64,000 nt of DNA from a virus (taxonomy: Duplodnaviria; Heunggongvirae; Uroviricota; Caudoviricetes): the IMG/VR virus record IMGVR_UViG_3300038451_000684; one strand, 5' to 3'. The notes under the pieces are model-generated. The model did not search any database. It saw nothing but the letters and a program-made list of their open reading frames with translations, and was not told the origin of the DNA. The position numbers and the translations under genes are program-made. Shown here in pieces: positions 1,126 to 63,023 of this stretch (positions are counted from its first letter, which is position 1; every line of letters begins with the position of its first letter).

Positions 1126-4100
1126 TCATCCTTCACCTCCTCCGCCCGCAAAGGGAAGAGCAGTCTGATAGGGCCCCGTACTCCCCCACGGCTTCACCTT
1201 GACGGCAAAGCCTTCCAGATTGATCTGGAACGGATGTGTCGAGGAGAACTGGAACCACATCAACTTCCATTTGTTCGCCCCCGGCCCGTTAAGAAGATTC
1301 AACTTCGTCAACGCTCCCCCAGAGCTGGGAAGGGTAATTGTTGCTGGCCCATAACTTCCGTTGTCCACGTCTGCCGACAAACATTTCAAGGTAATTGCCG
1401 CGGAGGAAATATACTCCACCGTAATATCCCGCACGTGCATCCATCCCGTGCCGCCGATGGCTGGCGTAAGCACCAGCGAGGACAATGTTTCCGTACCCGC
1501 GCTGCTCATCAGGCGAACCGAGCCATCCGCGCATCCAGCCAGAATTCCTTGCGTATCGGAGCCTTCATCAGGAGCGTGAACGGTCGCCGGCCACTGGTAC
1601 ACATCCCAAATCCAGCCCATGGCGGCAATATCGAAGACCAGCGTCCGCGAAACACCGGTAGTGTCCACGTAGTCGTAATAGAGATAGCCGTTCTGAATGC
1701 TGAACTTCTGCAATTGCGGCTGGCTATCGTCTGGCGGATAAATTGTCACGTCATTCCGCACGACGGATGTTGGAACCGATCCTTCATGCGAAAAGATCGG
1801 GTAGAGGACTTCATCCGTAATCGACTGCGAAGACAATCCCCCAGACGAAACATGAATGCCGTCATCAACGCGGAAAAAGACGTTTCCTCCGCCTTCTACC
1901 GCCAGGCAGCGCGGAATGAACAGCCCTCGGTTGATGCTCGACTCTTGAAGCGTCCAGGCCGATCCGGTGGTGCCGGTTGCGGTTGCTTCTGAATTGGAGA
2001 AGTTGGGCGTAATGACCCATGCGCGTTTGATCGAGAACAGCACGCCGCGCCCGCTGGAGATTGCTCCATTGACCAGCGGCTCGCTCGGATCGGTTACGTC
2101 CAGTTGATTTGTGTCCGGGGCCGAATCCAGGTTCGATCCCTTGCACCAGTAGAGAGTTCCCGGCCGCAGAGAGTCGCCCACGGCAAAGGTGTAGTTGATG
2201 TTGTCCGTCGGACCCCACATATAGGCCAGAGGCTGCGCGGCCAGCGTCGGTTCCGTGATCTCATAGGCCAGATTATCCCCGTCCGGCACGTTGGAGATGG
2301 TAATCTGGTCCACAAATCCAGGCGGAACCACAACGCCCCTGTCCGTGAAGGTCACGGTGTCGCTTGTCGTCGTGCCGCCCGTCGTGCTGAAGGTTGGTGT
2401 GGAGCTTCCCGTGGTTCCCGCCGTGGTCACCAGTTGGTAGTGGCCATTGGAATCCTCAATAATCCAGTTCAGCGGATAGGCCGTCAACGCGGCAAAGGCG
2501 CTTGCCGTAGGCCGAGAGGTCAACGTGTATTCCAGCGAAGTGGGCGAGCCGATCAGAATCTTCGTGCCCGCCACCCAGAAGCTATTGAACCCCGTCGCCG
2601 TGCCGCCGATGGCCCCACCACTTATCCAGGTAATCACGCCGCCGGAAACCGAGCAAACGCCCTTCTGTGGAAGATCGACAGAGGGAAAGGGCTCAAAGTT
2701 ATCTGATTCAAGCAGCGTCGTTCCCAGTTGAGTGTCCGTCAGGGCATCTGTAACCGCTGTATTCGTTCCGGTCAGCGTTCCCAAGTCATCGTTCGGCCCG
2801 GTGCAGACATAGGTGAAATCCGTCACCGAAGAATCCACGCGATAATAATCGACCTTGTCCACCTGGGGGTCGTTGGACCACTCCGAGGTGATGGTGTTTG
2901 AGGTGACAGGAATGGCTTCGGCGGTCGATTCGGGCGACGGATTGGAAACTGCTCCCGTCGCGCTGCTCCGGTAGACGTAGCGGTACTGAACTTGCTGCCT
3001 GACATTGGCCGTGATCGGAGGAATAATAGTCGGACTGGCGCCCGGCGTGGGAGATGCCATCAAGAGCAGAATGCGGCCGGAGTGGTACCAATAGTCATAA
3101 TCCAGCTCGATTGGATAGGTTCCTGCGGCAGTGACTTTGATCACTACGGTTGTTTTTGCGTAAGTTCCGCTTTCACCGCTGTTGCTGAACGTGTATGGCT
3201 GGCGAGGAAGCAGCGCAATTCCAGACACAACAGTGATCGTCTGACCGTAATTCGAGATTACGGGAGTTGAATGATTTCCAGTGGCTGAAACCAACGTGAC
3301 GCCCTTGATCCCCCAGATCACATCGTCATGATTTGTAAGTACAAAGGTGTAATTGCCCGGTTCAGGAAAATAGATACTTCCTACCAGGCAGAAATTGAAA
3401 TTGGCATACTGCGTATTGTTGGTAATGGTTGTCGTGAGCGGAGAAGCGAAAACCGCATTGGTGCCGATGGCAGTGCTCTCCGAGTCCAGCGTTGTCCATT
3501 CCATTGCCAAGGACGAATCTCCGATGCCCGGCAAGCCAGGTATTCCAGCCGGTTGTACGGGGCTGGCGGAGGAACCAAACTTGGTGTCAAAGATGAAGGA
3601 ATTTCCCGTTGTGCTTCCCACCGCGTTGGATGTGGAGCGAGTTGAGCCTGATCCCCCGGAATCATCTGGATTTTTCCAGGTGTATTTGCCCACTGAGCCG
3701 GAATGCGGGGAATCATCCCAGTAATAAATGGTCAAATCGCCCAGCGTGGCTGTCACTGCGGGCAGCGCGTTGGTCGTCACCGTGGTCGTAATGTCAAAGC
3801 TGCCAGAATTGGGGGGGCTAGCTTGCGTAAATGTATTTCCCGTCGAGTTGATGCCAATTTGGAATGCCACAGCTCCCGAAGGAACAGTGATCGCCGTGCC
3901 CAGCGTTCCGCCCACATCCACGATATTCGCGACATAGAGCGGCGCCGCGCCTGCGTCAACCACGTTTCCCGATCCATCCGTGAAGGCCCCAATAATGATC
4001 GATGGAGTCGTACTCGGCGGAGAAACTCCGCCCGCGGGCTGCACGTAATATCCAGGATTGGTCGAGGCCAGCGTCGGCCCGGTTGTTGCGGGGCTTGTGA

Positions 4101-4962: not shown

Positions 4963-6309
4963 TTACTTTGTTCCCTGAGACGATGCTTGGTTCCTCATCT
5001 GATTCGCGTTGTTGTAGCGTTCCTGGCTCCGATTCTGCGCTTGTCCGCGCTGCACCAGAATGTCGGAGAAAGATCCCGTGCTCATGAGCCGCGAATTCTC
5101 CGCCGCGCACGCTTGAATGGCTCTCGATTCCAGTTCCAATGCTTGCTGGAATTCCGCGCCTCCCTGCTTGAAGCAAGCCAGGCACTGCGCCAGATCGATC
5201 ACAATATCCCAGTTGCTGCGTGAAACCTGTACATAGTCGGCATCGAGCGTGGGCACGGGCGCATTGGCCAGCACCGTCACGCCAATGCCTGAGCCAACCG
5301 GGGCGGCCAGAAAATCAATGCCGCCAATTACGACGCAAGGTCCAAAGCTGGCAGGGGAAGAATCCCACTCCGGCATATAGCGGTCCATCGCTACAATGGA
5401 GGGCATATCACAGGCCATGCCGTTTACTTTTCCCAACATCGCCCAAGGCGTCTTCAGCAACAGGTTCAGACCGTCCTGATAACGCCGCAGACAATATGCC
5501 GCGCGCTGCCGGTCCGTGGCTTCCGTTTCACGGCCTAGCAAGTCGGCCAGCGCACCCCACTCCAGCACCCAGGCAAAATCGTTGGGGATGCCCAGCAAAG
5601 TCGCTGTGGGCGGATTGAAGGCCGCGCCGGATTGTAGAACAACCGCTTCATACGTTCCCGGCTGGTTCGGCGGCACATCCACGTCCCAGGCGAGCGGCGG
5701 CTCGCTGCTGAGCATAAAGGTTTGCGGCGGTTGCGCATTCTGCTGGTAGAGTGGAGCTTCGTAAAACTCCAGCGCCACCGTGTCATCGCGATAAAGCGTA
5801 TTGGGCGATCCGGTCGCGGGAATGTACCGGACGCGCTCCACGTCGATGACCGTGTCTGGCAGCAGAGTGCGCCGGGTGTTAGGTGTCAGCGCAATTCCAG
5901 TGAGCAGCGACTGGTTGCAGTTGGAGGCTTGCAGCATCTCGTCCCTGCGCCGCTGCAAGGCTTGCGTTAGATCGCTCATACTGAACTGCGTTGTTCCGGT
6001 CCAGGTTCCGCCTGTAGGCGGCTCCAGCAGCATGTACTCCATATTGGTGTAGGAATCGATGTCGGTCAGCGTGCGCAGCCGCGGCGAGCCGGTCAAAAGA
6101 CCGAGGGAATTCCAGAGCGACGATGAGTTGAAAGTGAAATCCTGCTTCCAGGTAAAGGTCAGCGCATTGAACATGCGCAGGGCTTTTTGGATATAGAGGC
6201 CGCACTCCGCGTCCGTCCAGAAGGTGGTTGACAAGGAACTGTCAATCGCCAACCGGCCGGCGAGCTGCTGCCGTGCTGTCGCATACGTGAGCCAACTGTA
6301 AGACGCCAT
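4963..6309 (-). CDS. hypothetical virion structural protein (448 aa)
   Basis: Long ORF in the structural operon with a good coding frame. No recognisable motif. Confidence 0.55.
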   Translation of the reverse strand: MASYSWLTYATARQQLAGRLAIDSSLSTTFWTDAECGLYIQKALRMFNALTFTWKQDFTFNSSSLWNSLGLLTGSPRLRTLTDIDSYTNMEYMLLEPPTGGTWTGTTQFSMSDLTQALQRRRDEMLQASNCNQSLLTGIALTPNTRRTLLPDTVIDVERVRYIPATGSPNTLYRDDTVALEFYEAPLYQQNAQPPQTFMLSSEPPLAWDVDVPPNQPGTYEAVVLQSGAAFNPPTATLLGIPNDFAWVLEWGALADLLGRETEATDRQRAAYCLRRYQDGLNLLLKTPWAMLGKVNGMACDMPSIVAMDRYMPEWDSSPASFGPCVVIGGIDFLAAPVGSGIGVTVLANAPVPTLDADYVQVSRSNWDIVIDLAQCLACFKQGGAEFQQALELESRAIQACAAENSRLMSTGSFSDILVQRGQAQNRSQERYNNANQMRNQASSQGTK

Positions 6310-15968: not shown

Positions 15969-15986
15969 CTCTGCACCTTCCTGTTC

Positions 15987-16044
15987 CCTAACCCCTAATC
16001 CCTGTCACCTAACCCCTAACCCCTAATCCCTGTCTCTATCCCCA
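15987..16044. repeat. C-rich (+) / G-rich (mRNA strand) telomere-like repeat island (CCCTAA/CCCCTAA)n
   Basis: Sequence ctaacccctaatccctgtcacctaacccctaacccctaatccctgtc lies between 16036..17046 and 15591..15968. Confidence 0.6.
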
Positions 16045-18715: not shown

Positions 18716-19948
18716 TTAGACCGAGAATCCAAAAGCATAGTTGTTGTGGCGCGGCTGCACGTTGTACAGGTTCGTGCCCAGCCGCATAAACAGAGCATCG
18801 ATGCTCACGTTATTCGGCATTGGCGCACGGCGCAGACCAAAGTTCCAGCCCTTCTTGTTGGTCGGGCGAATCTTGAAGCTTTCCGGCTCCAGGAAGTAAA
18901 TCACTTCGCTGGGCTGAATCGTGGTGACCGAAGGCAAACCGGAACCGGTCGGCGATACAAGGACGTTCGCGCCGTTCTTGGTGAACTGCGGAGTCGTGAA
19001 CGACACCGTTGTGGTGCTCGATCCAACGCCGTCCTGAAGGTTCGTATTGCCGGCTGCGCCGTTCGCCGGAGCCAGTTCGATGTAGTTCTGAGCCTGGGCT
19101 GAAGGCGCCAGCGGATCGGCATAAATGTCGACGCCGTTGAAGTTCAGGCCATCCCACTTGATGTCGTGCTTGGTGTTCGAAATGTCGCGGCGCTGCGCAT
19201 CGAGCGCGACGGCGATGGCTCTGAACCCGAAAACGTTGGTGATGCCCAGCGTCGGATTGCCGCCTGCGACCTTGATTGTCGACCACAACTGCATCAGGGC
19301 GGCAAAGTCGATCTGGCCGGGTGCTCCAGCCGATGTTCCCAGATATTGCGGCGTCGTGTTCAGCGCCGTGCCGATGTTGCCATTGCGCGCTTGTCCGCCG
19401 TAATTCGTGTAGATGTTGCCGTAGACGGAGGGATCGATGCCGTTGTTCAAGGCTTCGTCCATGCCGTTGATGGTCTTGATGCGATTGTCGAGAACAGTTG
19501 TCGAGGAAGGCTGGCCATGCCGGAAGGAATCCATCTCCTGCATGGTGTTCATGGTCATTACCATGGCTTCCATGTAGAGCTGGTACTCGTCGACAATCTT
19601 TGACGGACCGGAGTTAATCACACCGCCCGTGCCGGAGCCGTCATCCATTTCCCAGTCGTCCAGCGGATACCAGGTGGCATACGCCTTGGGCAGGAACTTG
19701 ATGCCGGTGTTGATCTGTTGGCGGGTCACGGTGACCGTCTGGCCGGGATTCACTGCGGCGCCTTGCGTGCGCCCGTAGAGAATGCCTTCCATCATGCCGG
19801 CGCCGCCGAGGAATTCATCCCACACACCAGCCCTGCGGAGCTTGGCCTGAAACGGCGTATCCACAAACAGGTTGTTGAAGACTACATTTTTGCGGACGCT
19901 TTCCAGGTTCGACGCATCGATTTCGTTATAGAGAGGATCGGTTGGCAC
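18716..19948 (-). CDS. putative major capsid protein (410 aa, GTG start at 19946-19948)
   Basis: Size and position (after scaffold-like gene, before decoration proteins) fit a major capsid protein. Preceded by element copy 3. No diagnostic motif verified. Confidence 0.5.
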   Translation of the reverse strand: MPTDPLYNEIDASNLESVRKNVVFNNLFVDTPFQAKLRRAGVWDEFLGGAGMMEGILYGRTQGAAVNPGQTVTVTRQQINTGIKFLPKAYATWYPLDDWEMDDGSGTGGVINSGPSKIVDEYQLYMEAMVMTMNTMQEMDSFRHGQPSSTTVLDNRIKTINGMDEALNNGIDPSVYGNIYTNYGGQARNGNIGTALNTTPQYLGTSAGAPGQIDFAALMQLWSTIKVAGGNPTLGITNVFGFRAIAVALDAQRRDISNTKHDIKWDGLNFNGVDIYADPLAPSAQAQNYIELAPANGAAGNTNLQDGVGSSTTTVSFTTPQFTKNGANVLVSPTGSGLPSVTTIQPSEVIYFLEPESFKIRPTNKKGWNFGLRRAPMPNNVSIDALFMRLGTNLYNVQPRHNNYAFGFSV

Positions 19949-25632: not shown

Positions 25633-27792
25633 TTACCAATCCAGTCGACCAACCGAGACCATATTCACCGAGCACACAGACTTATTCAGCGGTGGTGTTC
25701 GATCCGCCGGCAACGTGTAACGCTTTTGCGCTTGAGAACGATCAGCCAAGATATCGAAGTCGTGCGCGGTAAAGTAAGATTGCGCCGCCGCACGCACGCG
25801 GTCATCATGCTGGCCGCTGCGGTGCTCCAGCTTGGAAACACGGCCTGCGGCTTCATGCCGTTCCAGCGTCTTCAGCTCTTCGATCAGCCATTTGGATGCC
25901 GGCCGATACCAGCCGCCGTTCACAGCTTCCGTAAAGCGCGTCATCAGCATCGGCACGCTCCACACATTGGAGTACCAACCCTGCTTTTTGGTGGAGTTGT
26001 CCTTGATCTTCTTACTGTCGTAGCGCCGTGGAATGTGATGCCAATGGAAGCCCATCAGCTTGAGCTGGTGCTGGCATGTATCGCCCGGCCTCCCGATCTG
26101 CTCTACGCAGAACTTCACGCCGCGCGCATCGCGCGCATTTTCTCCATACCAGGCGGCCATACAAGCTGCGAAGCCCACAATCTGCGCGGAATTGATGCGG
26201 TTCGATGTCAGCTCGGCCACTTGGTAGTCAAACTCATCGCCAAACCTGTTTCGTGTCATCGACACGACGGTCCGGTCTTCATCCTCGCCGCCCAAGCCAT
26301 CGGCCGTATCGATTCCGCAACTATAGCTGGTGCCGGGCGTGGGCGCTTCATAGACCAGCAGTTTGTCGAACGAATCAGGTTCCTTGTCTTCGTCAATTGG
26401 CAAAAGAGGAACCAGAACCCAGTCGTATTGCTGGCCCCGATCAGACTCCCAACTTACGCGAATACGTGGTTTCTCGTCGTCGACGAATGCTTCGTTGGGT
26501 TCAAAGCCATCGTCAATCGAGTCACCCGTAATGGCATACACCTGTACTTCTTTCTTTCTTTCCCGCGTGTCTCCATGCAGTTCATAAACGTTGTTTTCAA
26601 TTTCCTGCATGGTTTCCGCGTCGAAGACGCTGTCATGCAAGCCGGTCAACGCTTCAAAGTCATCGGCGGCCATCTGCGCCAGCCAGATTTTCTGTGTATG
26701 GTTCTTGCAGGCTTGCAGATAGTTGAACTCCCAGAACCACTGCTGCTCGACAGGCATTGTCCAACGCGTGCCAACCACCTTGGACAGATATGGAGTGTTG
26801 CGGATGTAGAGTTCGCAGCGCAAAACATGCTTGCGCGTAATCTCCTGCCGTTTGCTCATAAAGTCTTCAGGAACGGGGAATTTCCGTATCCAATCGGCTT
26901 CTGGATAAAGATCGGTCGCCATCGGCCAGGGAATGAAGATAGGGCACAACCGGGAAAGGCCCTTCGGCCAATCTTCCTTGGCGCTGCGCCAAGTGTTTGC
27001 CAGCCAGCCAGTATTGCCGCCACCAGTCCCTTCAAAAACCAGAAACAGGTTTTTTGAAGAGTGCGTAGCGCGCAACAGACCTTCTTCAATCACCTTTTCC
27101 GGCTTGGGAATATCGGCAATTTCCGACACATGGATACAGGTCGGAGTCCACCCCTGAGCAATGCCGGTGGCCTGCATGCCAGACTGGATGGAAAGCACGG
27201 AACCGTTCTCAAAAGCCCCCTTCGGCATTCTGCGCGGCACCAGCCACCACGGGCAGCGGTTGTAGGCAATGTCAAGAATGCGCCCGATCAGTTCGGACTT
27301 ATCCGACTGCACGGACGCCATCACAGCCTGCGTATGGGGAATGAACAAGAGGCGGTGAAGGAACTTCAACGCGGTCTTGGTCGTGATGCCAACCTGCCGG
27401 GCCTTGATCACCAGGATTTCAATTGCCACTTGCAGTTCGTCGAAGCCGGCAATCACAGAATCGAAGATTTCCTGCGATCTACGATTTTGGAACTTGAAGA
27501 TTTCGCCTTTTTCGTTGCAGACATAGGCGTAGCGGCTCTCGAAGTAGCCGGCATCGAGGCCGCACATCGCCTGTTCATTCTCGATCCAGCGCCAAATTTC
27601 CTGACGGCGTTTTTGGGTAATCGGCCGCATCAGGGTGACATAGGAACTGCGAGAGTTTGATTCAATTTTGGTTAGCGAGTCGACGTAATGCTTGAATTCT
27701 TCTATTTGATCGAACGTATGAGGAGCGGGCATCCACCCCTCACGCGCGGCAAATTCGTCCAGGTTCCGAAGAATGATCTTCTCGGAATACAT
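25633..27792 (-). CDS. terL: terminase large subunit (719 aa)
   Basis: Size, position upstream of portal, and an ATPase-like segment VIKARQVGITTKTA. The antisense 443-aa + ORF is rejected. Confidence 0.6.
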   Translation of the reverse strand: MYSEKIILRNLDEFAAREGWMPAPHTFDQIEEFKHYVDSLTKIESNSRSSYVTLMRPITQKRRQEIWRWIENEQAMCGLDAGYFESRYAYVCNEKGEIFKFQNRRSQEIFDSVIAGFDELQVAIEILVIKARQVGITTKTALKFLHRLLFIPHTQAVMASVQSDKSELIGRILDIAYNRCPWWLVPRRMPKGAFENGSVLSIQSGMQATGIAQGWTPTCIHVSEIADIPKPEKVIEEGLLRATHSSKNLFLVFEGTGGGNTGWLANTWRSAKEDWPKGLSRLCPIFIPWPMATDLYPEADWIRKFPVPEDFMSKRQEITRKHVLRCELYIRNTPYLSKVVGTRWTMPVEQQWFWEFNYLQACKNHTQKIWLAQMAADDFEALTGLHDSVFDAETMQEIENNVYELHGDTRERKKEVQVYAITGDSIDDGFEPNEAFVDDEKPRIRVSWESDRGQQYDWVLVPLLPIDEDKEPDSFDKLLVYEAPTPGTSYSCGIDTADGLGGEDEDRTVVSMTRNRFGDEFDYQVAELTSNRINSAQIVGFAACMAAWYGENARDARGVKFCVEQIGRPGDTCQHQLKLMGFHWHHIPRRYDSKKIKDNSTKKQGWYSNVWSVPMLMTRFTEAVNGGWYRPASKWLIEELKTLERHEAAGRVSKLEHRSGQHDDRVRAAAQSYFTAHDFDILADRSQAQKRYTLPADRTPPLNKSVCSVNMVSVGRLDW

Positions 27793-44258: not shown

Positions 44259-44549
44259 ATGAATTTCACAGGACATCAGGCACGCGTTTTGGCTGGCATT
44301 CCGCCGCTGGTAGAAGATGCGACATGGAAGGCCATCGCTCCGCAAGATCAGCACCGCATCGAGTGTGAGCATTTCCATGCGTGCGGAGAAGATGCGACGT
44401 GGACCACGCGGCAAGGCACTCTTTGCGTCTGCGATTATCATCGCTTCACTGCGGACATTCAGCGCATCATCAAAGCCCTGACGATCCAGAACCAGAACTT
44501 TTTGATTCCTGCTGTTGAGAGGCCGTCGCATGAACGAATCAGCGCATGA
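44259..44549 (+). CDS. Cys/His-rich hypothetical protein (96 aa)
   Basis: Residues CEHFHACGED...CVCDYH. GGGAAGGGAAG RBS. Confidence 0.4.
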   Translation: MNFTGHQARVLAGIPPLVEDATWKAIAPQDQHRIECEHFHACGEDATWTTRQGTLCVCDYHRFTADIQRIIKALTIQNQNFLIPAVERPSHERISA

Positions 44550-45207
44550 CCAAAAGCGGATGGCGGCGGGGTTCGTTGTCATGGCCTGCATGATGGTTCT
44601 CGTTCTTTGGCGCTGGCACCAGCGGCAATTGGACTTGGGAATTCGACATCGCACGGCGCATTTGGAGCGCGAAAATGAACAAATGCGCTACTACGCCGAA
44701 CACGATGATCTGACCGGCTTATGGAATCGCCGCATGATTCTCCAGCGGTTGCATCAAGAAGTGAACCGCGCACAACGCGACCACACCCCCTTGAGCGTTG
44801 TTTTGCTTGATCTGGACCATTTCAAGCGGGTCAACGACACATTCGGCCATCCGGGCGGGGATCTGGTTCTCGAAAAGGTTAGCGCCATCTTGCAGAATTT
44901 TGTGCGTTCTTATGATTGGGTCGGCCGTTGCGGAGGCGAAGAGTTTTTGTTGATTCTCCCAGGAGCCAATTTGCTCAATGCGCAAACGCGCGCCGAACAA
45001 TTACGGCAAACCATCGCTTTGTCAGAGTTTTTGCACGACGGCGCACTGATCCAGATCACGACTAGCTTAGGGGTTGTTTGCAGCTTCCCGGCTATGTGTG
45101 ACGGTCTGATCCGCACCGTCGACTCCGCGCTCTACGAAGCCAAAAAGAAGGGAAGGAACTGCGTCGTGGCGATTGAGATGAAACCTTGCGAAAGGGAAAA
45201 TCGATGA
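44515..45207 (+). CDS. membrane-anchored GGDEF-domain diguanylate cyclase (start 44515 or 44530)
   Basis: One N-terminal TM helix. The canonical LLDLDHFKRVNDTFGHPGGDLVL and RCGGEEF active-site motifs are both present. Confidence 0.8.
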   Translation: MRGRRMNESAHDQKRMAAGFVVMACMMVLVLWRWHQRQLDLGIRHRTAHLERENEQMRYYAEHDDLTGLWNRRMILQRLHQEVNRAQRDHTPLSVVLLDLDHFKRVNDTFGHPGGDLVLEKVSAILQNFVRSYDWVGRCGGEEFLLILPGANLLNAQTRAEQLRQTIALSEFLHDGALIQITTSLGVVCSFPAMCDGLIRTVDSALYEAKKKGRNCVVAIEMKPCERENR

Positions 45208-46326: not shown

Positions 46327-46595
46327 CAACTTCTTACATACGCTTTCGTATTCTCAGTGCATGGGGCCCAAAGGATGTATTCCGCTTTTCACAAGAGGGT
46401 GTGGTCCAAGTCGAAAGTTTGCTGGATGTAAAACAGGCCATTCAAAAGATTTCTGTCGTTTATCCGTTGACCTCTTTCGATGTGCTGGAACTGGAATTCA
46501 GCGCGTCCTATGCCTACTTCACATTTGCGGCAGATCCGCATGATCCCGACCAGGAATTGAACCCCAGTAAACCAATCTATGTACCAAAAGGGTGA
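46323..46595 (+). CDS. hypothetical protein (90 aa)
   Basis: ORF only. Confidence 0.4.
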   Translation: MTTSYIRFRILSAWGPKDVFRFSQEGVVQVESLLDVKQAIQKISVVYPLTSFDVLELEFSASYAYFTFAADPHDPDQELNPSKPIYVPKG

Positions 46596-46602
46596 ATCAG
46601 TA

Positions 46603-47286
46603 ATGACCGATGTTTTTGCATATCTGCGCGTCTCCGGCCCCAGCCAGCTTCGCGGTGACGGCTTCCGGCGGCAGTTCATCGCCATTCGGAAATACTGCGT
46701 CGCGAACCAGTTGCATATCGTCCGCATCTTCAAAGAGCGCGGCATCTGCGGCGCAACGGAACTTGAGAACCGACCGGCGCTTTCCGAACTTTTCAATGCG
46801 CTTGAATCAGACGGCGTCAAGGCGGTGGTGATTGAGCGGCTGGACCGGCTGGCGCGCGATCTCATGGTGCAGGAAACCATCATCGCCGATATGCAGAAAT
46901 CGGGTTATGTGCTGCATTCCAGCTGTGAGCCCGATCTTTGTTCGATAGATCCCAGCCGCGTGCTGGTGCGGCAAATCTTCGGCGCAATCGCGCAGTATGA
47001 GAAGTGCATGATCGTACTCAAGCTGCGCGGCGCCCGGCAACGCAAGAAGGCCCGTGGTGAGCGGGGAGAGGGCCGCCACGCTTACGGAGAGAAGCCCGGC
47101 GAGGAAGTGACCTTGCAGCGGATTCTTGCTCTTCAATCCACCGGCCATTCAACGCGCGCCATTGCCAATTTTCTCAATACGGCGGGCGACGCCACACGCA
47201 TGGGCGGCACCTGGAAGCCCGGCACGGTAGCCAAAATTCTGGCGCGCGACTCAACAAAAGAAAAGATTCACCACGCTTGCGCGTAA
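46603..47286 (+). CDS. small serine recombinase (resolvase/invertase family, 227 aa)
   Basis: N-terminus MTDVFAYLRVSGPSQ carries the catalytic Ser motif. C-terminal HTH GHSTRAIANFL. Ends 60 bp before CRISPR array 1. Confidence 0.75.
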   Translation: MTDVFAYLRVSGPSQLRGDGFRRQFIAIRKYCVANQLHIVRIFKERGICGATELENRPALSELFNALESDGVKAVVIERLDRLARDLMVQETIIADMQKSGYVLHSSCEPDLCSIDPSRVLVRQIFGAIAQYEKCMIVLKLRGARQRKKARGERGEGRHAYGEKPGEEVTLQRILALQSTGHSTRAIANFLNTAGDATRMGGTWKPGTVAKILARDSTKEKIHHACA

Positions 47287-47345: not shown

Positions 47346-48383
47346 GTTGCATCAACAGATGTACTGAAAATTCCTTGCTACCATATTGATGATTCTTTGG
47401 AGCTCGTGCGTACAGTTGCATCGAACAGATGCACTTAAAATTCCTTGCTACCTCTCCTTGGAAGCGCTGCTTGGGCTGCATTGCGTTGCATCGAACAGAT
47501 GCACTGAAAGTTCCTTGCGACGCCATTTCGCAAGCAACGATATGAAAGGCCAGCTGTTGCATCGAACTGATGCACTGAAAATTCGTTGCTACCGCCAAAT
47601 TACTCTGGGACGACACTGCAAAATTTGGTTGCATCAAACAGATGCACTGAAAGTTCCTTGCTACGCTGATAGCTCTTGGATATTGCAACGGAATCAAAGT
47701 TGCATCAAACAGATGCACTGAAAGTTCCTTGCTACTGTCTTTCTGCGGAACGGGCCTAGCTAGGAAAAGAGTTGCATCAAACAGATGCACTGAAAGTTCC
47801 TTGCTACGGAACGGGATAAAGGCCGGCGGCGGGCGTCTCGATGTTGCATCAAACAGATGCACTGAAAGTTCCTTGCTACACCTTACATGCTTACCGCAGA
47901 CTGCACATGGTTGGGTTGCATCAAACAGATGCACTGAAAGTTCCTTGCTACGAAATTTCCCTTGACGTAATAGGTGAACCCTGATTGTTGCATCAAACAG
48001 ATGCACTGAAAGTTCCTTGCTACCCCAAGTTCCTTCTGATGGCGCGTGCAATGCAACAGGTTGCATCAAACAGATGCACTGAAAGTTCCTTGCTACATTG
48101 TGGCAGGGGACTACAAGTGTCAACCTTGGTGTTGCATCAAACAGATGCACTGAAAGTTCCTTGCTACTACGAGCCGGGCGACGTGGTGCGCTATGCGAAG
48201 AAGTTGCATCAAACAGATGCACTGAAAGTTCCTTGCTACGTCCCGCAACGCGCAACGGTCAGGCGATTGACATGTTGCATCAAACAGATGCACTGAAAGT
48301 TCCTTGCTACATGTCATCTGGAACTGCGTTTGTCGGCCAGTCACGGTTGCATCAAACAGATGCACTGAAAGTTCCTTGCTACC
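47346..48383 (-). CRISPR. CRISPR array 1: 15 repeats of 37 bp, 14 unique spacers of 33-36 bp, no adjacent cas gene
   Basis: Repeat, read on + strand, is GTTGCATCAAACAGATGCACTGAAAGTTCCTTGCTAC. Eleven repeats are identical and the four at the 47346 end are degenerate (one has a 1-nt deletion). The AT-richer leader-like sequence at 48384-48560 therefore implies minus-strand transcription. Confidence 0.85.
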
Positions 48384-48559
48384 GCTCGATTATAACTCTT
48401 TTGTTTTGAATGGCTCCAATCCGCTTTCCGCTAACCTCGACTAGGAGCGCCTCGTCGGTTGTGACATAGAATACATGAATCATCCAATCCCCTTCAAAAT
48501 CATCATTTTACCCCTTCCGCGAACCTCCCGGCTTTTGGCCGTAGCTGGGGGTTCGCGCT

Positions 48560-48985
48560 TTACGAATTCCACACTTGGAGTTCCCATGTCCGCCGGGCAA
48601 GCAAATCTTTGTTCGCCTTACCGCCCGTCTCGTCCCATCGCAGCAGTTGCTTTCCGGCCGCCGCGTACTGTTGCTGGTTGAGCAATTCCAGCAACGTGGA
48701 TTTCTGCAAGCGGCCGGCGCCCAGGTTGTACACAAAATCCACCAGCGCGTCGAACTGGCCTTGCGTCAGCGACACTTTCACCAGCGTCTCCACCTGCGAT
48801 TCCACTTTGGCTACATCCTCTTCAAACGCTATTTTCGCTTGGAGCGTAGTCCAAACCAGCCCGGCATGGACCTCCGGCCCATGGTGGCCATAACCGATGG
48901 CCCAGCCGCTCACGTCCCATTTCGCCTGCAGGATCAGGCCTTCGGACTGTTGAATGCGATCAAGTAGCTTCTGGGATGCCTTCAT
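48560..48985 (-). CDS. GH24 phage lysozyme (endolysin, 141 aa)
   Basis: Catalytic E/D region IQQSEGLILQAKWDVSGWAIGYGHH and motif GQFDALVDFVYNLG are both conserved T4/lambda-type lysozyme features. Confidence 0.8.
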   Translation of the reverse strand: MKASQKLLDRIQQSEGLILQAKWDVSGWAIGYGHHGPEVHAGLVWTTLQAKIAFEEDVAKVESQVETLVKVSLTQGQFDALVDFVYNLGAGRLQKSTLLELLNQQQYAAAGKQLLRWDETGGKANKDLLARRTWELQVWNS

Positions 48986-49542
48986 CGTATTGCCTCCGCA
49001 TATTCACGCATCAGCGTCTTTTGTAAAAATTGAGAATAGGCGCGCAACGCCACCCCGCGCCCCACATCCTGGCATCGATCGATGAAGAACACGCCATGCA
49101 GATGATCGATCTCGTGCTGCACAATCCGCGCGGCCTGCGCCTTGTAAATCGAGCGCTGAACGGCGTCGGGATCTTGCAGCGTTCCGCTGCGCACATCTAC
49201 GATTTCGCTGCGCCATACGCGCGCCTTGACTTCGCCAGTGGGCGGCAAGCTCAAGCAGCTTTCCGATTCCAGCAGATCCTTTCCCGACAAATTCACGATC
49301 TCTGGATTGATCAGCACATGCACGTTTTTATAGGGCGGGATCTGAAAAATAGCTAACTGAATAAAAATGCCGACTTGCGGCGCGGCCAGCCCTGTTTCGT
49401 TATGCTGTTTCATTAACCGCGTCATTTCTTGCACCAGCTTTGTCAAGGCTTGCAAGTTGTCCAGCTTTACCACCCGCCGGCACGGTTTGTTCACAAGCTC
49501 CGGTCGATAGTATTCCAGGGATAGTTTTCCTAACTCCAGCAC
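48982..49542 (-). CDS. def: peptide deformylase (186 aa)
   Basis: All three PDF motifs are present: GLAAPQVG, ESCLSLP (EGCLS) and QHEIDHLHG (HExxH). Confidence 0.8.
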   Translation of the reverse strand: MLELGKLSLEYYRPELVNKPCRRVVKLDNLQALTKLVQEMTRLMKQHNETGLAAPQVGIFIQLAIFQIPPYKNVHVLINPEIVNLSGKDLLESESCLSLPPTGEVKARVWRSEIVDVRSGTLQDPDAVQRSIYKAQAARIVQHEIDHLHGVFFIDRCQDVGRGVALRAYSQFLQKTLMREYAEAIR

Positions 49543-49661
49543 AGGTCGCTCCTAGGACGGTGGATAAATCCTTCGTCAGAGCGCATTGTAAATCGATTTT
49601 AAAACAGGCATTCTAATACGTCACAAAGTCGAAAAAGGTATAGATTGAATCGTCAAAACAC

Positions 49662-50138
49662 CTAATTCATTTTAGATAAATCCGACTTTTTCTGGAAGGC
49701 ATCCAAGCTGCGGTTCAGGGGCTCCAAATTGAGAGGAAATCCATACTCGACCATAAGCTGCACGGCGACGGCCGCCAGCGCGACTTCTTTTAATTGCCGG
49801 TTTTCATTTTCCAGATTCTTGACTTGTTTTTTTTGCGCCAGAAGAAGTTTTCTCCACCAATAATTCCGAACAACAAGGACAACGCACAAGAAAAGCGTGA
49901 CGACGGCATTCATCCATCCCAGCCACCTGCCCCGTATCGCATCGATGGCCATGATCGCGCCGTTGCCGCAAAGCAAAAGGCAGTTCGAGATATCGTAACC
50001 GACAAAAAGCGCCGTTTGCCGCCGCGGCGTGATGCCGCCCCACCAGCGTTCAATCGCCTCAATCATTTTGCGCATTGCGTTCCTTTCAGCCAATCCTGGT
50101 ACGTCGAACAACTGTTTGCTGCGCGCTGTCAATACCAA
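49662..50138 (-). CDS. membrane protein (158 aa)
   Basis: Two or three TM helices and a coiled-coil KQVKNLENENRQLKE segment. Confidence 0.45.
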   Translation of the reverse strand: MVLTARSKQLFDVPGLAERNAMRKMIEAIERWWGGITPRRQTALFVGYDISNCLLLCGNGAIMAIDAIRGRWLGWMNAVVTLFLCVVLVVRNYWWRKLLLAQKKQVKNLENENRQLKEVALAAVAVQLMVEYGFPLNLEPLNRSLDAFQKKSDLSKMN

Positions 50139-50500
50139 AGAAACGTCAGCTCCGCCCAGTTGAGCACCTTCGGGTTTGACATCTGCTCATGATAGCTGCT
50201 GGCTTCGGCCAGGCGTTTCATGAAAATCGGCTGGTAGGCAAACTCCTCGGCGTGCCGACCGTCTTCTTCGTAGTTCGCTGAGGTGTAGACAAAACACTTG
50301 GTGTATTCGGGCATCGGCTGCCCAGGTATCAGGCCCGCCCGCACCTCCCATGCCGCCTTGAGCCGTGTCGCTTTCGCAGCTTCCTCTGCATGCCAGAGAT
50401 GCGTATCGGGATCAACAACAATCCAATGGCCGCACTTCGCGCAAATCGTTCTCTCTTTAACCGGATTCATCGGTACATGACCGCAAACGGTCTCACTCAT
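50129..50500 (-). CDS. Cys-rich hypothetical protein (123 aa)
   Basis: CGHV...CAKCGHW zinc-ribbon-like N-terminus. Confidence 0.4.
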   Translation of the reverse strand: MSETVCGHVPMNPVKERTICAKCGHWIVVDPDTHLWHAEEAAKATRLKAAWEVRAGLIPGQPMPEYTKCFVYTSANYEEDGRHAEEFAYQPIFMKRLAEASSYHEQMSNPKVLNWAELTFLWY

Positions 50501-50723
50501 GACTTTTCACCTTTTCCACCTTCGTCCAAGGATAACCGTCTGTCGTGCAGACCAGTTCAGGGTCGCGCTCCAGTCGCGCGAAGATCCCCATCAATTTTGC
50601 GTTTGCGCTCGCCTCGAAGCAGGAGTAGCGCCCAGCCTCCAGCACCCGCGCCTTGACGGTTTCGTAGGTCGGCTTCTTCAAGTTCAACGTCGAATCGAAA
50701 CGGCAAAGATGTGCGTAACTCAA
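50493..50723 (-). CDS. hypothetical protein (76 aa)
   Basis: ORF only. Confidence 0.35.
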   Translation of the reverse strand: MSYAHLCRFDSTLNLKKPTYETVKARVLEAGRYSCFEASANAKLMGIFARLERDPELVCTTDGYPWTKVEKVKSHE

Positions 50724-50883
50724 GACTCAACCTTTCTTGCTTTGCTGCGGCGCAATCTGAGGCTTCCGCTTTGCGGCGGCGCACAGTGCTGCGACAACAA
50801 AACCAATGGCAAAGCCCCAAAACACGCCAACAATCAAACCAATCCAAAAGGGAATTATATACTTGACTTCCGTGGGCCATAAG

Positions 50884-51525
50884 TTAGCCCCATTGCTCGG
50901 CAAATGCGGTGGCAATGCCAGGATAGGTGATTGAACGCCGTTGCTGTCGGGTGAGACCGTTTTTGATTCCAGGAGATTCATAATGCACCCTCGGTACTCT
51001 TCCATCGACGATATTAGACGGCTGCAAAAGTGGAAGACCTTTCAGCCAAAGACACGTTCCCTTGGTTTCGCCGTGCCCAAACTGCCAAGGCTGGATAATC
51101 TGGTCGGGCTTGCGCCAGCGACTCGACATCAAGCCAATGGGGTTCTCTATAGCGATCTTCGGGATGTCGGCATTGGCGAACAGCATGAACAGGTCTATCG
51201 CTTGTATCTGCTCTGCCTGTTTATCCTTCCACCATCGAGCGCCACTGACCGCAAGACGAGTGCAAGGAGGAAAGGCAATCATCATGTCCCACTGATAGGT
51301 GTATGGCAGCAAAGCATCCCAAGCGTCACCTACGATGTGGAACTCACTCCCATCAGCAGCCGGGAGAATATCGAGGGACCAAGCATCATGGCCCCGCTCA
51401 CGGAAGGCGCGTCTGACCGCGCCGGAAAACTCACACGCGATCAGGATTTTCAAGTTTCTTCTCTTTCCTCTTCCGTTTCTTGGCTGCTTTGCTCTTCGGT
51501 TTTGGCTTATAGGCCAGTACCACAT
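50884..51525 (-). CDS. IS passenger gene: protein with C5-cytosine-methyltransferase-like motifs (213 aa)
   Basis: AFPPCTRLAVSG resembles motif IV (PC) and IENPIGL resembles motif VI (ENV). It is too short for a complete Dcm-type enzyme, so function is uncertain. Confidence 0.35.
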   Translation of the reverse strand: MWYWPISQNRRAKQPRNGRGKRRNLKILIACEFSGAVRRAFRERGHDAWSLDILPAADGSEFHIVGDAWDALLPYTYQWDMMIAFPPCTRLAVSGARWWKDKQAEQIQAIDLFMLFANADIPKIAIENPIGLMSSRWRKPDQIIQPWQFGHGETKGTCLWLKGLPLLQPSNIVDGRVPRVHYESPGIKNGLTRQQRRSITYPGIATAFAEQWG

Positions 51526-51558
51526 CGGTTATCTTATCCAACACTTCGGGCGTTTCTT

Positions 51559-52476
51559 TCATGCTGTCAGCCTCTTATAAGTCAAACGCTGCCCGTCAAC
51601 CGCGGAAATGAACGAGTCCAGCCGGTCCAAGGTGTGATTGGCCACGTTACCAGCATTCAGCCGGAAGGTGACTTCATTGACGTATCGAGCAACGTGCTTG
51701 GCGCTGATGTGATGCCAAGTGCCGTAGACGCCGCGTTTCAGGAGTGCCCACACAGACTCGATACCATTGGTGTGGACTTCGCCCCGGCTGTACTCGCCAG
51801 CGCCGTGATTCACGGTCGCATGGCTGTAGAACAGTCCATCCATGCCCTGATAGCCGCTGGCCTCATCCGTCATGACTTTGGAGCCAATCTCGACGTTATC
51901 CAGGACTGCGCCTTGAAGAGCCTCTTTATCGGTGTTCTCAACTGGAAACGCAATCGTCCGACCACCGCGCTCCCTGAGTCCCACAACGGCGGTCTTGCCA
52001 ACAGCGCCCCGGCCCATGTGGAGTTTCTTCGACTCGTGTTTGTTGGCTTCCTTGCCGCCTACAAAGCACTCATCCACTTCAATCAGGCCGGACAGTTTAT
52101 CCATCTTTCCGGCGCAAGCCTCACGCAGCCGCTGCAACATAAACCAGGCCGTCTTCTGAGTCACGCCGATCTCTTTAGCGAGTTGCATCGAACTGATTCC
52201 CTTCCGCGCCGTGACTACGAGGTACATGGCATAAACCCACTTGTGGAGCGGTACATGCGACCGCTCAAAAATTGTGCCGGTGCGGACCGTGAAAGTAGTT
52301 TCGCAGCGGTTGCAACGGTAAAAGTCACCCTTGCGGTTGGTGATGCGCTCACGGCCCGCGCATGTCGGGCACGTAACGCCATCGGGCCAAAGTCTAGATT
52401 CCAGATAGAGCCTTGCGGTTTCCGCATCTGGGATCAGGTTGAACAACTCGAACGTGCTGATTGTACTCTTGCTCAT
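51559..52476 (-). CDS. IS1595-family (ISXO2-like) DDE transposase (305 aa)
   Basis: N-terminal zinc finger CPTCAG...CNRC. Core IEVDECFVGG...HATVNHGAGEYSRGEVHTNGIESVWALLKRG...HISAKHV is typical of DDE_Tnp_IS1595. Confidence 0.75.
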   Translation of the reverse strand: MSKSTISTFELFNLIPDAETARLYLESRLWPDGVTCPTCAGRERITNRKGDFYRCNRCETTFTVRTGTIFERSHVPLHKWVYAMYLVVTARKGISSMQLAKEIGVTQKTAWFMLQRLREACAGKMDKLSGLIEVDECFVGGKEANKHESKKLHMGRGAVGKTAVVGLRERGGRTIAFPVENTDKEALQGAVLDNVEIGSKVMTDEASGYQGMDGLFYSHATVNHGAGEYSRGEVHTNGIESVWALLKRGVYGTWHHISAKHVARYVNEVTFRLNAGNVANHTLDRLDSFISAVDGQRLTYKRLTA

Positions 52477-52542
52477 GAGTTAAAGATACTTGAGTTCCCC
52501 ACGGAAGTCAAGTATATAATTCCCATCCAAAATCCAGTCATG

Positions 52543-52923
52543 CTACTCCTCTACGGCCGCTCCTTGATTCGTTTCGGCTTCATCTTCCGGCCATGCCGGT
52601 CCCAGCGGATGATCGCCACAAACCGGCGTCAACGGCGCGTGTTTCTTGCCCTTCCCGAGCACTGGCAACCCAGGCGCGCTCAGACTATGCGCATAGAACT
52701 CGCAAAGCATGGTCCACATTACCTTGCGTCGCTTGCCGCATTCCGCGCAGGGAACCGCTTGGTTAAAGCGCAGAAACCGGACGGCGACCCGTGCTTCTTC
52801 CGTGAACATAGGATTCGGTTTGGCTTCCAGAATCTGGACGACCAGGATCTCGCGCTTTTTGGCTAATCCCTTACCCCTAGTCCCTAACCCCTGTTTTTTC
52901 ACAGCCAGACCTCCACGATGCAC
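52543..52923 (-). CDS. hypothetical Cys-containing protein (start uncertain, probably ~52809)
   Basis: The N-terminal 38 codons of the track ORF are encoded by the CCCTAA repeat island and are probably 5'UTR. The stop overlaps (ATGA) the start of the split membrane-protein gene. Confidence 0.35.
   Translation of the reverse strand: MHRGGLAVKKQGLGTRGKGLAKKREILVVQILEAKPNPMFTEEARVAVRFLRFNQAVPCAECGKRRKVMWTMLCEFYAHSLSAPGLPVLGKGKKHAPLTPVCGDHPLGPAWPEDEAETNQGAAVEE
52863..52893. repeat. telomere-like C-rich island ctaatcccttacccctagtccctaacccctg
   Basis: Same CCCTAA/CCCCTA unit family as the 6318, 15987, 17052, 53876 and 62970 sites. Confidence 0.55.
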
Positions 52924-53150
52924 GGATCATCGTCCTTGAAGCGCTCCAAGCAAAAGAGCCCCGGCGGAACGCTCAAGCGGATCTCTTCCAGTGTATTTGC
53001 CAGAGCTATGTCGTCGGTCATCTGCATCACACCAGGCTCCCGTATCTCCCAGCGCCGCATCATGTACTTGTCGGGAAAGTCGCGCGGATGATCGTAGATC
53101 ACCCACTGCGACATGACCAGATGCGGAGTAACGGTCGAGTCGTCTTCCAT
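52899..53150 (-). CDS. hypothetical protein (~83 aa, start MEDDSTV with GGGGAGG RBS)
   Basis: The longer track ORF would read into CRISPR array 2. An internal start has a good RBS 7 nt upstream. Confidence 0.35.
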   Translation of the reverse strand: MEDDSTVTPHLVMSQWVIYDHPRDFPDKYMMRRWEIREPGVMQMTDDIALANTLEEIRLSVPPGLFCLERFKDDDPCIVEVWL

Positions 53151-53265
53151 GCAATGCCTCCCCGTAAATTGCATCGGCCTCCCGGCCGGCTGTAGTGCGG
53201 GCGTCCCCGCCCGCGCTGGTTCATGATTAGCTACCAATTCATTCCCTTGTTCCCACACTTCCATC

Positions 53266-53866
53266 GTTGCATCGAACAGATGCACTGAAAATTCTTTGCT
53301 ACGAAAGTTTGCCACCGAGGTCGTAATCAGTGCGATGAGTTGCATCAAACTGATGCACTTAAAATTCGTTGCTACAGCGTCGATTCCCGCAGCAAATGGA
53401 TTCGATCATGTTGCATCGAACAGATGCACTGAAAGTTCCTTGCGACTCACGAACGCTTATCTTACGGACGTGATCGGACTGTTGCATCGAACAGATGCAC
53501 TTAAAATCCGTTGCTACGGATGGCTGCCAAACGCCTCGGGAATCTTGAAAAGGTTGCATCGAGCTGATGCACTGAAAATTCATTGCTACGTTGAGCACTT
53601 CTGCTGCGCGATCGGTCGGCACGCCGTTGCATCGAACTGATGCACTGAAAGTTTGTTGCTACCTTGCGGGGCCATGTATCTCTGAAGCCGCACTGCGCGT
53701 TGCATCAAACTGATGCACTGAAAATTCCTTGCTACGTTCCATGAGTCCTGATAGAAACAAGAGGCCCTTGTTGCATCGAACAGATGCACTTAAAATTCCT
53801 TGCTACCGAGGTCAAAACGGCAGCGAGTGGATGGCAGTGCGTTGCATCGAACAGATGCACTGAAAA
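53266..53866. CRISPR. CRISPR array 2: 9 degenerate copies of the same 37-bp repeat (last truncated), 8 spacers of 34-36 bp
   Basis: Repeats are GTTGCATCGAACAGATGCACTGAAAATTCTTTGCTAC and variants, each differing by 1-4 nt from the array-1 consensus. Orientation is ambiguous and no cas gene is present. Confidence 0.8.
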
Positions 53867-53875
53867 AAGCAGGAA

Positions 53876-53950
53876 ACAGGGAATAGGGATCAGGGATTAG
53901 TTTATAAATATCTATAAACTAACCCCTGATCCCTAACTCCTAATCCCTGC
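53876..53950. repeat. ~75-bp imperfect palindrome of telomere-like units with core GGGATTAGTTTATAAATATCTATAAACTAACCCCT
   Basis: Arms cagggaatagggatcagggattagtttata and tataaactaacccctgatccctaactcctaatccctg. Related to the 6318..6412 palindrome. Confidence 0.65.
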
Positions 53951-62934: not shown

Positions 62935-63016
62935 ACAGCGGACAGATTGAAAAGCTGTTCGCTGTCCCCTAACCCCTAATCCCTAATCCCTAACCCCTAA
63001 TTTCTAGCCCCTAACC
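62935..63016. repeat. 13-bp-stem hairpin (GGACAGCGGACAG...CTGTTCGCTGTCC) followed by (CCCTAA/CCCCTAA)n telomere-like island
   Basis: Sequence cctaacccctaatccctaatccctaacccctaatttctagcccctaacccctg lies directly after the stop of 63024..63977. Confidence 0.6.
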
Positions 63017-63023
63017 CCTGTTT

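Follow-up and report, generated by a model that had tools for sequence, protein, structure and literature searches.

CRISPR arrays in a 64-kb tailed-phage sequence and related arrays beside Cas12m-like genes

Proteins of the Cas12m type bind DNA without cutting it and are under development as compact base and epigenome editors. They belong to type V-M, formerly called V-U1, of the CRISPR systems (the name stands for short palindromic repeats, clustered and regularly interspaced). V-M systems are already known on plasmids and 'some prophages' (PMC11656645). Published Cas12m repeats (PMC11013384 Table S5) include those of Ms (GUAGCAACGCCUAGCUCAGGGGCUCGAAAACUGAGAC), Tf (GUUGCAAUGCCUAGCUCAGAGGUUUAAAGACUGAGAC) and Go (GUGUCAACGCCAGCGCGGAGGCGUCAAAUCCGCGAC). 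In the CRISPR RNA (crRNA) of Cas12m2, the 36-nt repeat is the scaffold; its base pairs are G(-23) with A(-2) and C(-22)-C(-17) with G(-8)-G(-3), and the guide follows C(-1) (PMC10442227). Here we analyse two arrays, array 1 and array 2, in a 64-kb stretch of DNA from a virus of the Caudoviricetes (IMG/VR record IMGVR_UViG_3300038451_000684). The whole stretch, 64,000 nt, is called the window. A first-pass annotation of its sequence had likened the repeat of array 1 to that of Cas12a and proposed a type V effector as the partner. In our judgement, arrays 1 and 2 are very probably guide-RNA arrays of a phage-borne Cas12m-like type V system.

The arrays, their repeat RNA and the leader

Array 1 is a genuine, polar CRISPR array (Table 1). 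On the plus strand its repeat reads GTTGCATCAAACAGATGCACTGAAAGTTCCTTGCTAC. The repeats start 70-73 nt apart and all 14 spacers are unique, in agreement with the general description of a CRISPR array (at least three near-identical repeats of 23-55 nt and unique spacers of similar length). At up to three mismatches, the repeat matched 17 sites in the window and none in 100 shuffles. The first-pass annotation had placed an array at 47346-48383 with degenerate repeats at the 47346 end. We found 15 direct repeats at 47346-48382, and their mismatches to the consensus, counted from 47346 towards 48382, were 9, 3, 2 and 4, followed by 0 in eleven copies. The mismatches thus put the degenerate end where that annotation had it; this 47346 side is the old end. 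The eleven identical repeats (47628-48382) lie on the leader side and have the loop UGUUU; the older variants (47346-47592) have UGUUC or AGUUC.

Array 2, which had not been noticed in the first-pass annotation, has the orientation of array 1. The hairpin half of the repeat and the AC that follows it are kept in all nine copies, and the 5' half of the repeat is missing from the copy at the 53877 end. Two variants are identical across the arrays: the repeat at 47415, in the old end of array 1, equals that at 53770 in array 2, and 47485 equals 53410. The uniform repeats of array 1 have in common a derived base in their loop, UGUUU. The old end of array 1, array 2 and the related locus L048 (L numbers denote related loci) have UGUUC or AGUUY. 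A derived base common to the eleven leader-side repeats is the pattern produced by growth at the leader end.

The minus-strand sequence of the repeat is GUAGCAAGGAACUUUCAGUGCAUCUGUUUGAUGCAAC. It is predicted to fold into a 3' hairpin of 6 bp, UGCAUC/GAUGCA (U19-A35 to C24-G30), with the loop UGUUU and then AC (-7.8 kcal/mol). Folding bore out the spacer-proximal 3' hairpin with a UGUUU loop that had been described earlier. The 5-bp stem GCAUC/GAUGC given for it is contained in the helix, which has an extra U-A pair. This energy is unremarkable for a 37-mer (z = -0.76) and by itself proves little; what supports the helix is covariation in the relatives. We aligned 23 distinct repeat variants from related loci, with an N as placeholder in the loop of the 36-nt L113 repeat. 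All 138 cells (6 pairs in 23 variants) are standard pairs. In four of the six stem pairs both partners have changed; for example, UC/GA at the top of the helix is replaced by CU/AG, CC/GG or GU/AC, and the U-A pair at its base by C-G. None of 500 shuffles matched the covariation score, and slid-partner controls paired in 19-49% of the cells. A17, G18, A36 and C37 are invariant across the 23 variants.

Six of the stem cells are G·U pairs, which are A·C mismatches on the opposite strand, where 132 of the 138 cells pair. Because these cells fit the minus strand only, they provide modest but independent support for a minus-strand RNA. The minus-strand crRNA proposed earlier is also supported by the homology of the leader and by the strand of cas12 in relatives (see below). 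A search of both strands of the window at up to three mismatches gave no anti-repeat, and the related arrays show same-sense copies only. Rfam gave no CRISPR-DR or other family, using gathering thresholds for the whole window and E-values over part of the array.

The leader had been expected in an AT-richer flank at 48384-48560. Homology supports this position: the flank aligned with the leaders that follow cas12 in L047, L116 and L052 at a mean column identity of 71%. The aligned leaders have in common a palindrome, CGCGAACC...GGTTCGCG, the element GATGATTTTGAAGG, and TTCAAAACAAAAGAGTTATAAT just before the first repeat. The difference in base composition is true but mild. The G+C content is 50% at 48383-48559 and 45% in its 60 nt beside the array, compared to 54% in the window and 58% in the opposite flank. 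From the sequence, TTCAAAACAAAAGAGTTATAAT with its TATAAT hexamer is a candidate array promoter. The palindrome at 48518-48558 is terminator-like but lacks a T run. The form CGCGAACC...GGTTCGCG recurs in the leaders of L047, L116, L052 and L113, sometimes twice. Possible roles are the termination of transcription of the upstream gene or the binding of a protein.

A Cas12m-like effector in related phages

The exact 37-nt repeat is absent from IMG/VR and was found in none of 132 related loci. Because of its absence from IMG/VR we used the looser pattern TTGCATCNNNNNGATGCACTNAAA, which occurs there in 46 stretches on about 25 viral contigs, many of them with several arrays each. The window is 65-90% identical in nucleotide sequence to these contigs across the structural genes and the accessory region. 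Its nearest relative, L021 (IMGVR_UViG_3300022594_000453), is collinear with 43.9-54.8 kb of the window. At the site of the 15-repeat array 1, L021 has a single repeat (3697-3733), which may be solitary or the remnant of a collapsed array.

In related phage and metagenome loci, arrays of this repeat family adjoin a gene, here called cas12, for a RuvC/zinc-ribbon protein of 730-780 aa. The first-pass annotation had recommended a search of related genomes for cas12 genes flanked by the repeat, and such genes exist: about 33 of the 58 cas12 loci listed have a family array downstream, at a distance of a few tens of nt to about 2.1 kb. Many of the remaining loci end close to cas12. About 30 of the approximately 33 linked arrays are on the gene strand; those of L078, L079 and L088 are inverted. 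On the cas12 coding strand the repeats read as the minus strand of the window. The closest repeat, that of L020/L048, differs from the window's by 1 nt, in the loop. There, 124 nt separate the end of the gene for a 754-aa protein from the uniform end of a same-strand array of 25 repeats. L048 has ten identical repeats near the gene, followed by fifteen variants on the distal side, which is the polarity seen in array 1. A Cas12-family gene directly upstream of same-strand arrays supports a type V effector as the partner. As the window itself contains no cas12, the link to this effector rests on the relatives.

The arrays themselves are also connected. One window spacer (47880-47914) shares 29 identical nt with L048 (5912-5940) and L011 (564-592). 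The match lies in the older part of the array in L020/L048, a diverged relative whose effector is P0001. This shared stretch points to a common descent of the arrays.

The effector open reading frame (ORF) beside these arrays encodes 745-754 aa and contains the motifs GLDVGW, LIVE, CxxC...CxxC and QDHN, the marks of a zinc-ribbon protein with a RuvC fold. PADLOC scored it as Cas12u1 (2e-26) and Cas12f (2.5e-25). A database search yielded 107 homologs, most of 700-780 aa and nearly all unannotated ('hypothetical' or 'zinc ribbon protein'). Compared with the PDB, a profile of 30 homologs matched the Cas12m chain 23vw_A (3.6e-20), UnCas12m4a (1e-12) and Cas12m2 (1e-6), then TnpB and Cas12f. The top Foldseek matches of an AlphaFold model of the effector (mean predicted local distance difference test score 83) were Cas12m2 (8hhl, 3.7e-20) and GoCas12m (8pm4, 2e-18); Cas12f, CasLambda, Cas12o, Cas12h and others ranked behind Cas12m. 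Judged by sequence profile and predicted fold, the effector family is closest to Cas12m (V-M). The template modelling (TM) scores against Cas12m were 0.43-0.53, and only the RuvC/zinc-ribbon half shows sequence similarity. The motifs of the family had no match in the available, possibly incomplete, text of the published Cas12m family table. The family looks like an enlarged, undescribed Cas12m-like branch.

We also inspected the RuvC positions in 96 full-length homologs. The first acidic residue (position 433 of P0001) is Asp in 71, Glu in 21 and neither in 4. The second is Glu in 89 and the third Asp in 87. Glu in place of Asp at the first position hints at a nuclease chemistry that is relaxed or altered.

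The neighbours of cas12 in L047, L130 and L132 are HNH, a 488-aa ORF, DUF7873, RecT or ERF, and a tyrosine integrase. No Cas1 or Cas2 families appear in the gene lists around cas12 of these three loci. The HNH/DUF7873/RecT-ERF/integrase module has no counterpart in the 64-kb window, and for this reason the cas12 module may lie in the unseen half of the genome. In other relatives, cas12 is close to genes that the window does contain. In L052, L087 and L089 the distance from cas12 to homologs of window 57.6-58.0 kb is about 1.5 kb, and in L097, L098, L111 and L103 the gene abuts a homolog of window 60.3-60.6 kb. Two IMG/VR contigs, 3300017941_000010 and 3300017940_000554, have window-like genes and cas12 on one contig.

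The phage, its other genes and its host

By its gene content, which includes a large terminase subunit and a major head protein, the window is the genome of a tailed phage (Table 1). Pfam, PADLOC and PHROGs searches of about 35 window ORFs gave no Cas protein, Cas1/Cas2 and class 1 proteins included, and no tRNA was found in the window. GenBank phages showed no DNA similarity to window 44-56 kb. Both ORFs of more than 1200 aa are probably phage structural proteins. As candidate effectors they were rejected, since they gave no RuvC or Cas signal. The IS1595 transposase was rejected as an RNA-guided partner because it is a DDE transposase and is absent from L021. It sits between the arrays in a stretch of about 1.7 kb (50849-52527) that is likewise absent from L021 and is probably a recent insertion. 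The peptide deformylase and the GGDEF cyclase are auxiliary genes that could alter host physiology.

Table 1. Coordinates of array features and genes in the window
Feature	Position	Strand	Remarks
CRISPR array 1	47346-48382	-	15 repeats of 37 nt, 14 spacers of 32-36 nt
Array 1 leader	48383-48559	-	Homologous to leaders between cas12 and array in related phages
TATAAT hexamer, candidate -10	48389-48394	-	6 nt upstream of first repeat, within conserved TTCAAAACAAAAGAGTTATAAT
Palindrome CCGCGAACC...GGTTCGCGC	48518-48558	-	Between lysozyme stop codon and leader; conserved in related leaders
CRISPR array 2	53266-53877	-	9 variant repeats, 8 spacers of 34-36 nt
ORF, 1237 aa	1126-4839	-	No Pfam, PADLOC or PHROGs match save sub-threshold PA14
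ORF, 1232 aa	10644-14342	-	No Pfam, PADLOC or PHROGs match
Major head protein	18716-19948		Protein-family match
Large terminase subunit	25633-27792		Protein-family match
GGDEF protein (diguanylate cyclase)	44515-45207		
Small serine recombinase	46579-47286		
Phage lysozyme	48560-48985		
Peptide deformylase	48982-49542		
IS1595 transposase	51559-52476		

Arrays 1 and 2 flank the lysozyme gene, the peptide deformylase gene and their neighbours (48560-53348) in direct orientation. In L048 (1681-6337) and L047 (9841-13166), cas12 itself is bracketed by arrays in like manner. Recombination between arrays could swap or delete the bracketed cassettes. Runs of CCCTAAC or CCCCTAA-like heptamers occur in the window at 15980-16031, 52868-52889, 53880-53950 and 62966-63019. 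The pair of runs at 53880-53950, which abut array 2, forms an inverted repeat whose centre is AT-rich.

Metagenome contigs of the group reach 120-130 kb, four of them being 129.3-130.2 kb long, and related genomes appear to be about 110-130 kb. Given contigs of this length, the 64-kb window is probably about half a genome. The repeat is also found on contigs of metagenome-assembled genomes (MAGs) of Acidobacteriaceae, Terracidiphilus and Acidobacteriales, and some of the effector homologs are labelled Terracidiphilus. On a 688-kb Acidobacteriaceae MAG contig (L055, CAWCWB010000005.1), three family repeats stand beside a homolog of the serine recombinase with 76% nucleotide identity (559-1078 and about 5267-5450). 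This suggests that the L055 locus is an integrated prophage that names the likely host group. Because of the MAG contigs and the recombinase neighbour in L055, the host is probably an acidobacterium and the phage probably temperate. The carrier is probably a phage of peat-soil Acidobacteriaceae. Acidobacteria are abundant in soil, and their phages are little known.

Interpretation and comparison with known systems

We propose that the arrays would work as follows. Minus-strand transcription of array 1 would start from the conserved leader. In the transcript, each repeat would form its 6-bp hairpin, closed by the invariant G·A and followed by AC, directly 5' of a spacer. A Cas12m-like protein of the kind encoded by the relatives would bind the repeat 5' handle and trim the precursor to crRNAs, without a trans-activating crRNA (tracrRNA). 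PmCas12m cuts after repeat nt 2-3 and at guide nt 17-18 (bioRxiv 10.64898/2026.03.26.714355). The spacer would then guide the protein to double-stranded DNA of a competing element, flanked by a protospacer-adjacent motif (PAM). By analogy, binding would most likely block transcription or replication of the target. Cleavage may also occur, because most homologs keep the D-E-D triad. Binding without cutting is the default expected by analogy, since published Cas12m proteins with D-E-D do not cut either (PMC11013384). Since the carrier is a tailed phage of, probably, peat-soil Acidobacteriaceae, the likely targets are phages that compete with it or other mobile elements. The effector would come either from elsewhere in the same genome or in trans from a related co-resident phage, and we regard these two sources as about equally probable.

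Several observations weigh against assigning the arrays to a phage-borne Cas12m-like system. Using tblastn with four effector homologs, we found no cas12 homolog in the 64 kb. The window neighbourhoods of 57.6-58.0 and 60.3-60.6 kb hold none either. No protospacer for the 22 window spacers was found in any of the related loci compared, which gave array-to-array matches only, as did 292 spacers of the relatives. Two window spacers searched against IMG/VR matched nothing outside arrays, and against GenBank phages the arrays gave nothing credible, the one hit being a weak match to a Gordonia phage that we attribute to chance. These searches thus yielded neither a PAM nor a target. A strict sigma-70 scan called no promoter in the leader, because the TATAAT hexamer has no -35 element at 16-18 nt. 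Over the structural alignment the effector shares only 13-16% identity with solved Cas12m, and it is about 150 residues longer; for these reasons we call it Cas12m-like and do not assert a subtype. Finally, the loop of the repeat family is 3-5 nt (5 in the window) compared to about 8-11 nt in Cas12m, and the classical GCC...GGC pseudoknot segment is not evident in the window repeat.

An alternative is that the arrays are true orphans. In that case the effector was lost or never present, and a Cas12m-like protein would come from a co-resident prophage, a co-infecting relative or the host. The arrays would hijack this trans protein as a guide library for inter-phage competition. We consider both the orphan state and the hijacking quite possible, though short of probable. 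They would account for the lack of cas12 in the window, also at the sites whose homologs neighbour it in some relatives, and for the one repeat that L021 keeps at the array 1 site. Several IMG/VR contigs that are rich in arrays but did not turn up in the cas12 search fit as well; one is the 89-kb 3300050034_000403, which has five array loci. Viral arrays that use a trans-supplied protein are an established idea (PMC11656645). However, if genomes of this group measure about 110-130 kb, half of the window's genome is unseen, and the relatives' HNH/DUF7873/RecT-ERF/integrase module may simply lie outside. Moreover, a pattern-based search for cas12 can miss divergent copies. The lone repeat in L021 could instead be read, together with lone hairpin units in relatives (e.g. 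L132 15329), as a sign that the repeats serve mainly as RNA decoys, that is, as RNA anti-CRISPRs that soak up the Cas12m-like effectors of competitors. Single repeat units acting as inhibitors have been described (PMC11656645). For the arrays of the window such a role is improbable: their 22 spacers (14 in array 1 and 8 in array 2) are unique and uniform in length, one is shared with a diverged relative, and the conserved leader with eleven identical leader-side repeats and their derived loop base indicates normal growth at the leader end.

It is highly improbable that array 1 belongs to class 1 (type I or III, with plus-strand crRNAs) or to Cas12a proper. A 37-nt repeat with an internal palindrome has a generic look that would suit either, and the first-pass annotation pointed out a likeness to Francisella. 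The Francisella Cas12a repeat is GUCUAAGAACUUUAAAUAAUUUCUACUGUUGUAGAU. Like the repeat described here, it has a short 3' hairpin 1-3 nt from the spacer that serves as the crRNA 5' handle, and no tracrRNA is needed. However, the stem is UGCAUC/GAUGCA in the window and UCUAC/GUAGA in Cas12a, and the 3' end of the window repeat is UGCAUC-UGUUU-GAUGCAAC rather than UCUACU-loop-GUAGAU, a Cas12a consensus taken from the AsCas12a crRNA. The AAG(G)AACUUU tract that seemed to resemble the Francisella repeat did not hold up, as a AAGAACUUU-like tract is not conserved in relatives: AAGGAACUUU varies freely there, to GCAGUUUGA, GAACAUAAA and GGGCGCCAA. Its resemblance to the Cas12a repeat is most likely coincidental. 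Neither the window ORFs tested nor any of about 60 related loci yielded a class 1 or Cas12a gene. The linked effector is not of Cas12a size (about 1200-1300 aa) and is far closer to Cas12m/Cas12f. The analogy to Cas12a in particular therefore fails, with an effector nearest Cas12m, a different stem and a tract that is not conserved. A class 1 array would be accompanied by cas genes and leave an 8-nt tag after the Cas6 cut, whereas the hairpin here reaches to 2 nt from the spacer. The G·U pairs and the leader polarity favour the minus strand, and Rfam gave no CRISPR-DR match.

A broader picture, which we put forward tentatively and consider rather unlikely, is that of a temperate phage lineage of peatland Acidobacteriaceae, with genomes of about 110-130 kb, that has an enlarged undescribed Cas12m-like clade and scattered arrays serving both as guide library and as recombination sites. 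If this were true, the arrays would form a distributed guide library for a DNA-binding silencer in phage-phage conflict. Some of them would bracket cargo cassettes directly (lysis/peptide deformylase in the window, cas12 in relatives), and they would also be recombination sites where cassettes, the effector included, are swapped or lost.

What is new here is a V-M-like array in an acidobacterial phage; V-M systems as such are already described. The scattering of the arrays and their bracketing of cassettes are the less ordinary aspects. The architecture of the repeat alone had pointed correctly to a type V partner, and following it up exposed more than 100 mostly unannotated Cas12m-like homologs in phages of Acidobacteria. 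Because Cas12m-type editors are in development, a larger phage-borne clade with a simple repeat is of some practical interest. Long arrays far from any effector gene also bear on the use of CRISPR between mobile elements.

The closest described system is type V-M. Eight published Cas12m repeats (PMC11013384) share with the window repeat a length of 36-37 nt, a GUAGCAAYG-like 5' start and a hairpin followed by AC before the spacer. As in Cas12m2, a 6-bp helix lies between the invariant G18 and A36, and the spacer follows C37. Cas12m is also the best match of the relatives' effector in sequence and fold, the effector has no cas1 or cas2 beside it, and the carrier is a mobile element. The differences are that the relatives' effector has 730-780 aa compared to about 570-620 aa, that several arrays are scattered over one phage genome, and that the arrays of the window stand without an effector. 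In this last respect they resemble virus-borne arrays without adjacent cas genes, such as the mini-arrays of archaeal viruses and the arrays of huge phages (PMC11656645), whose presumed role is likewise in conflict among viruses or mobile elements. However, the arrays of the window are long, with 14 and 8 spacers compared to 1-2 in mini-arrays, and their cognate effector is encoded by the same phage lineage rather than known from the host.

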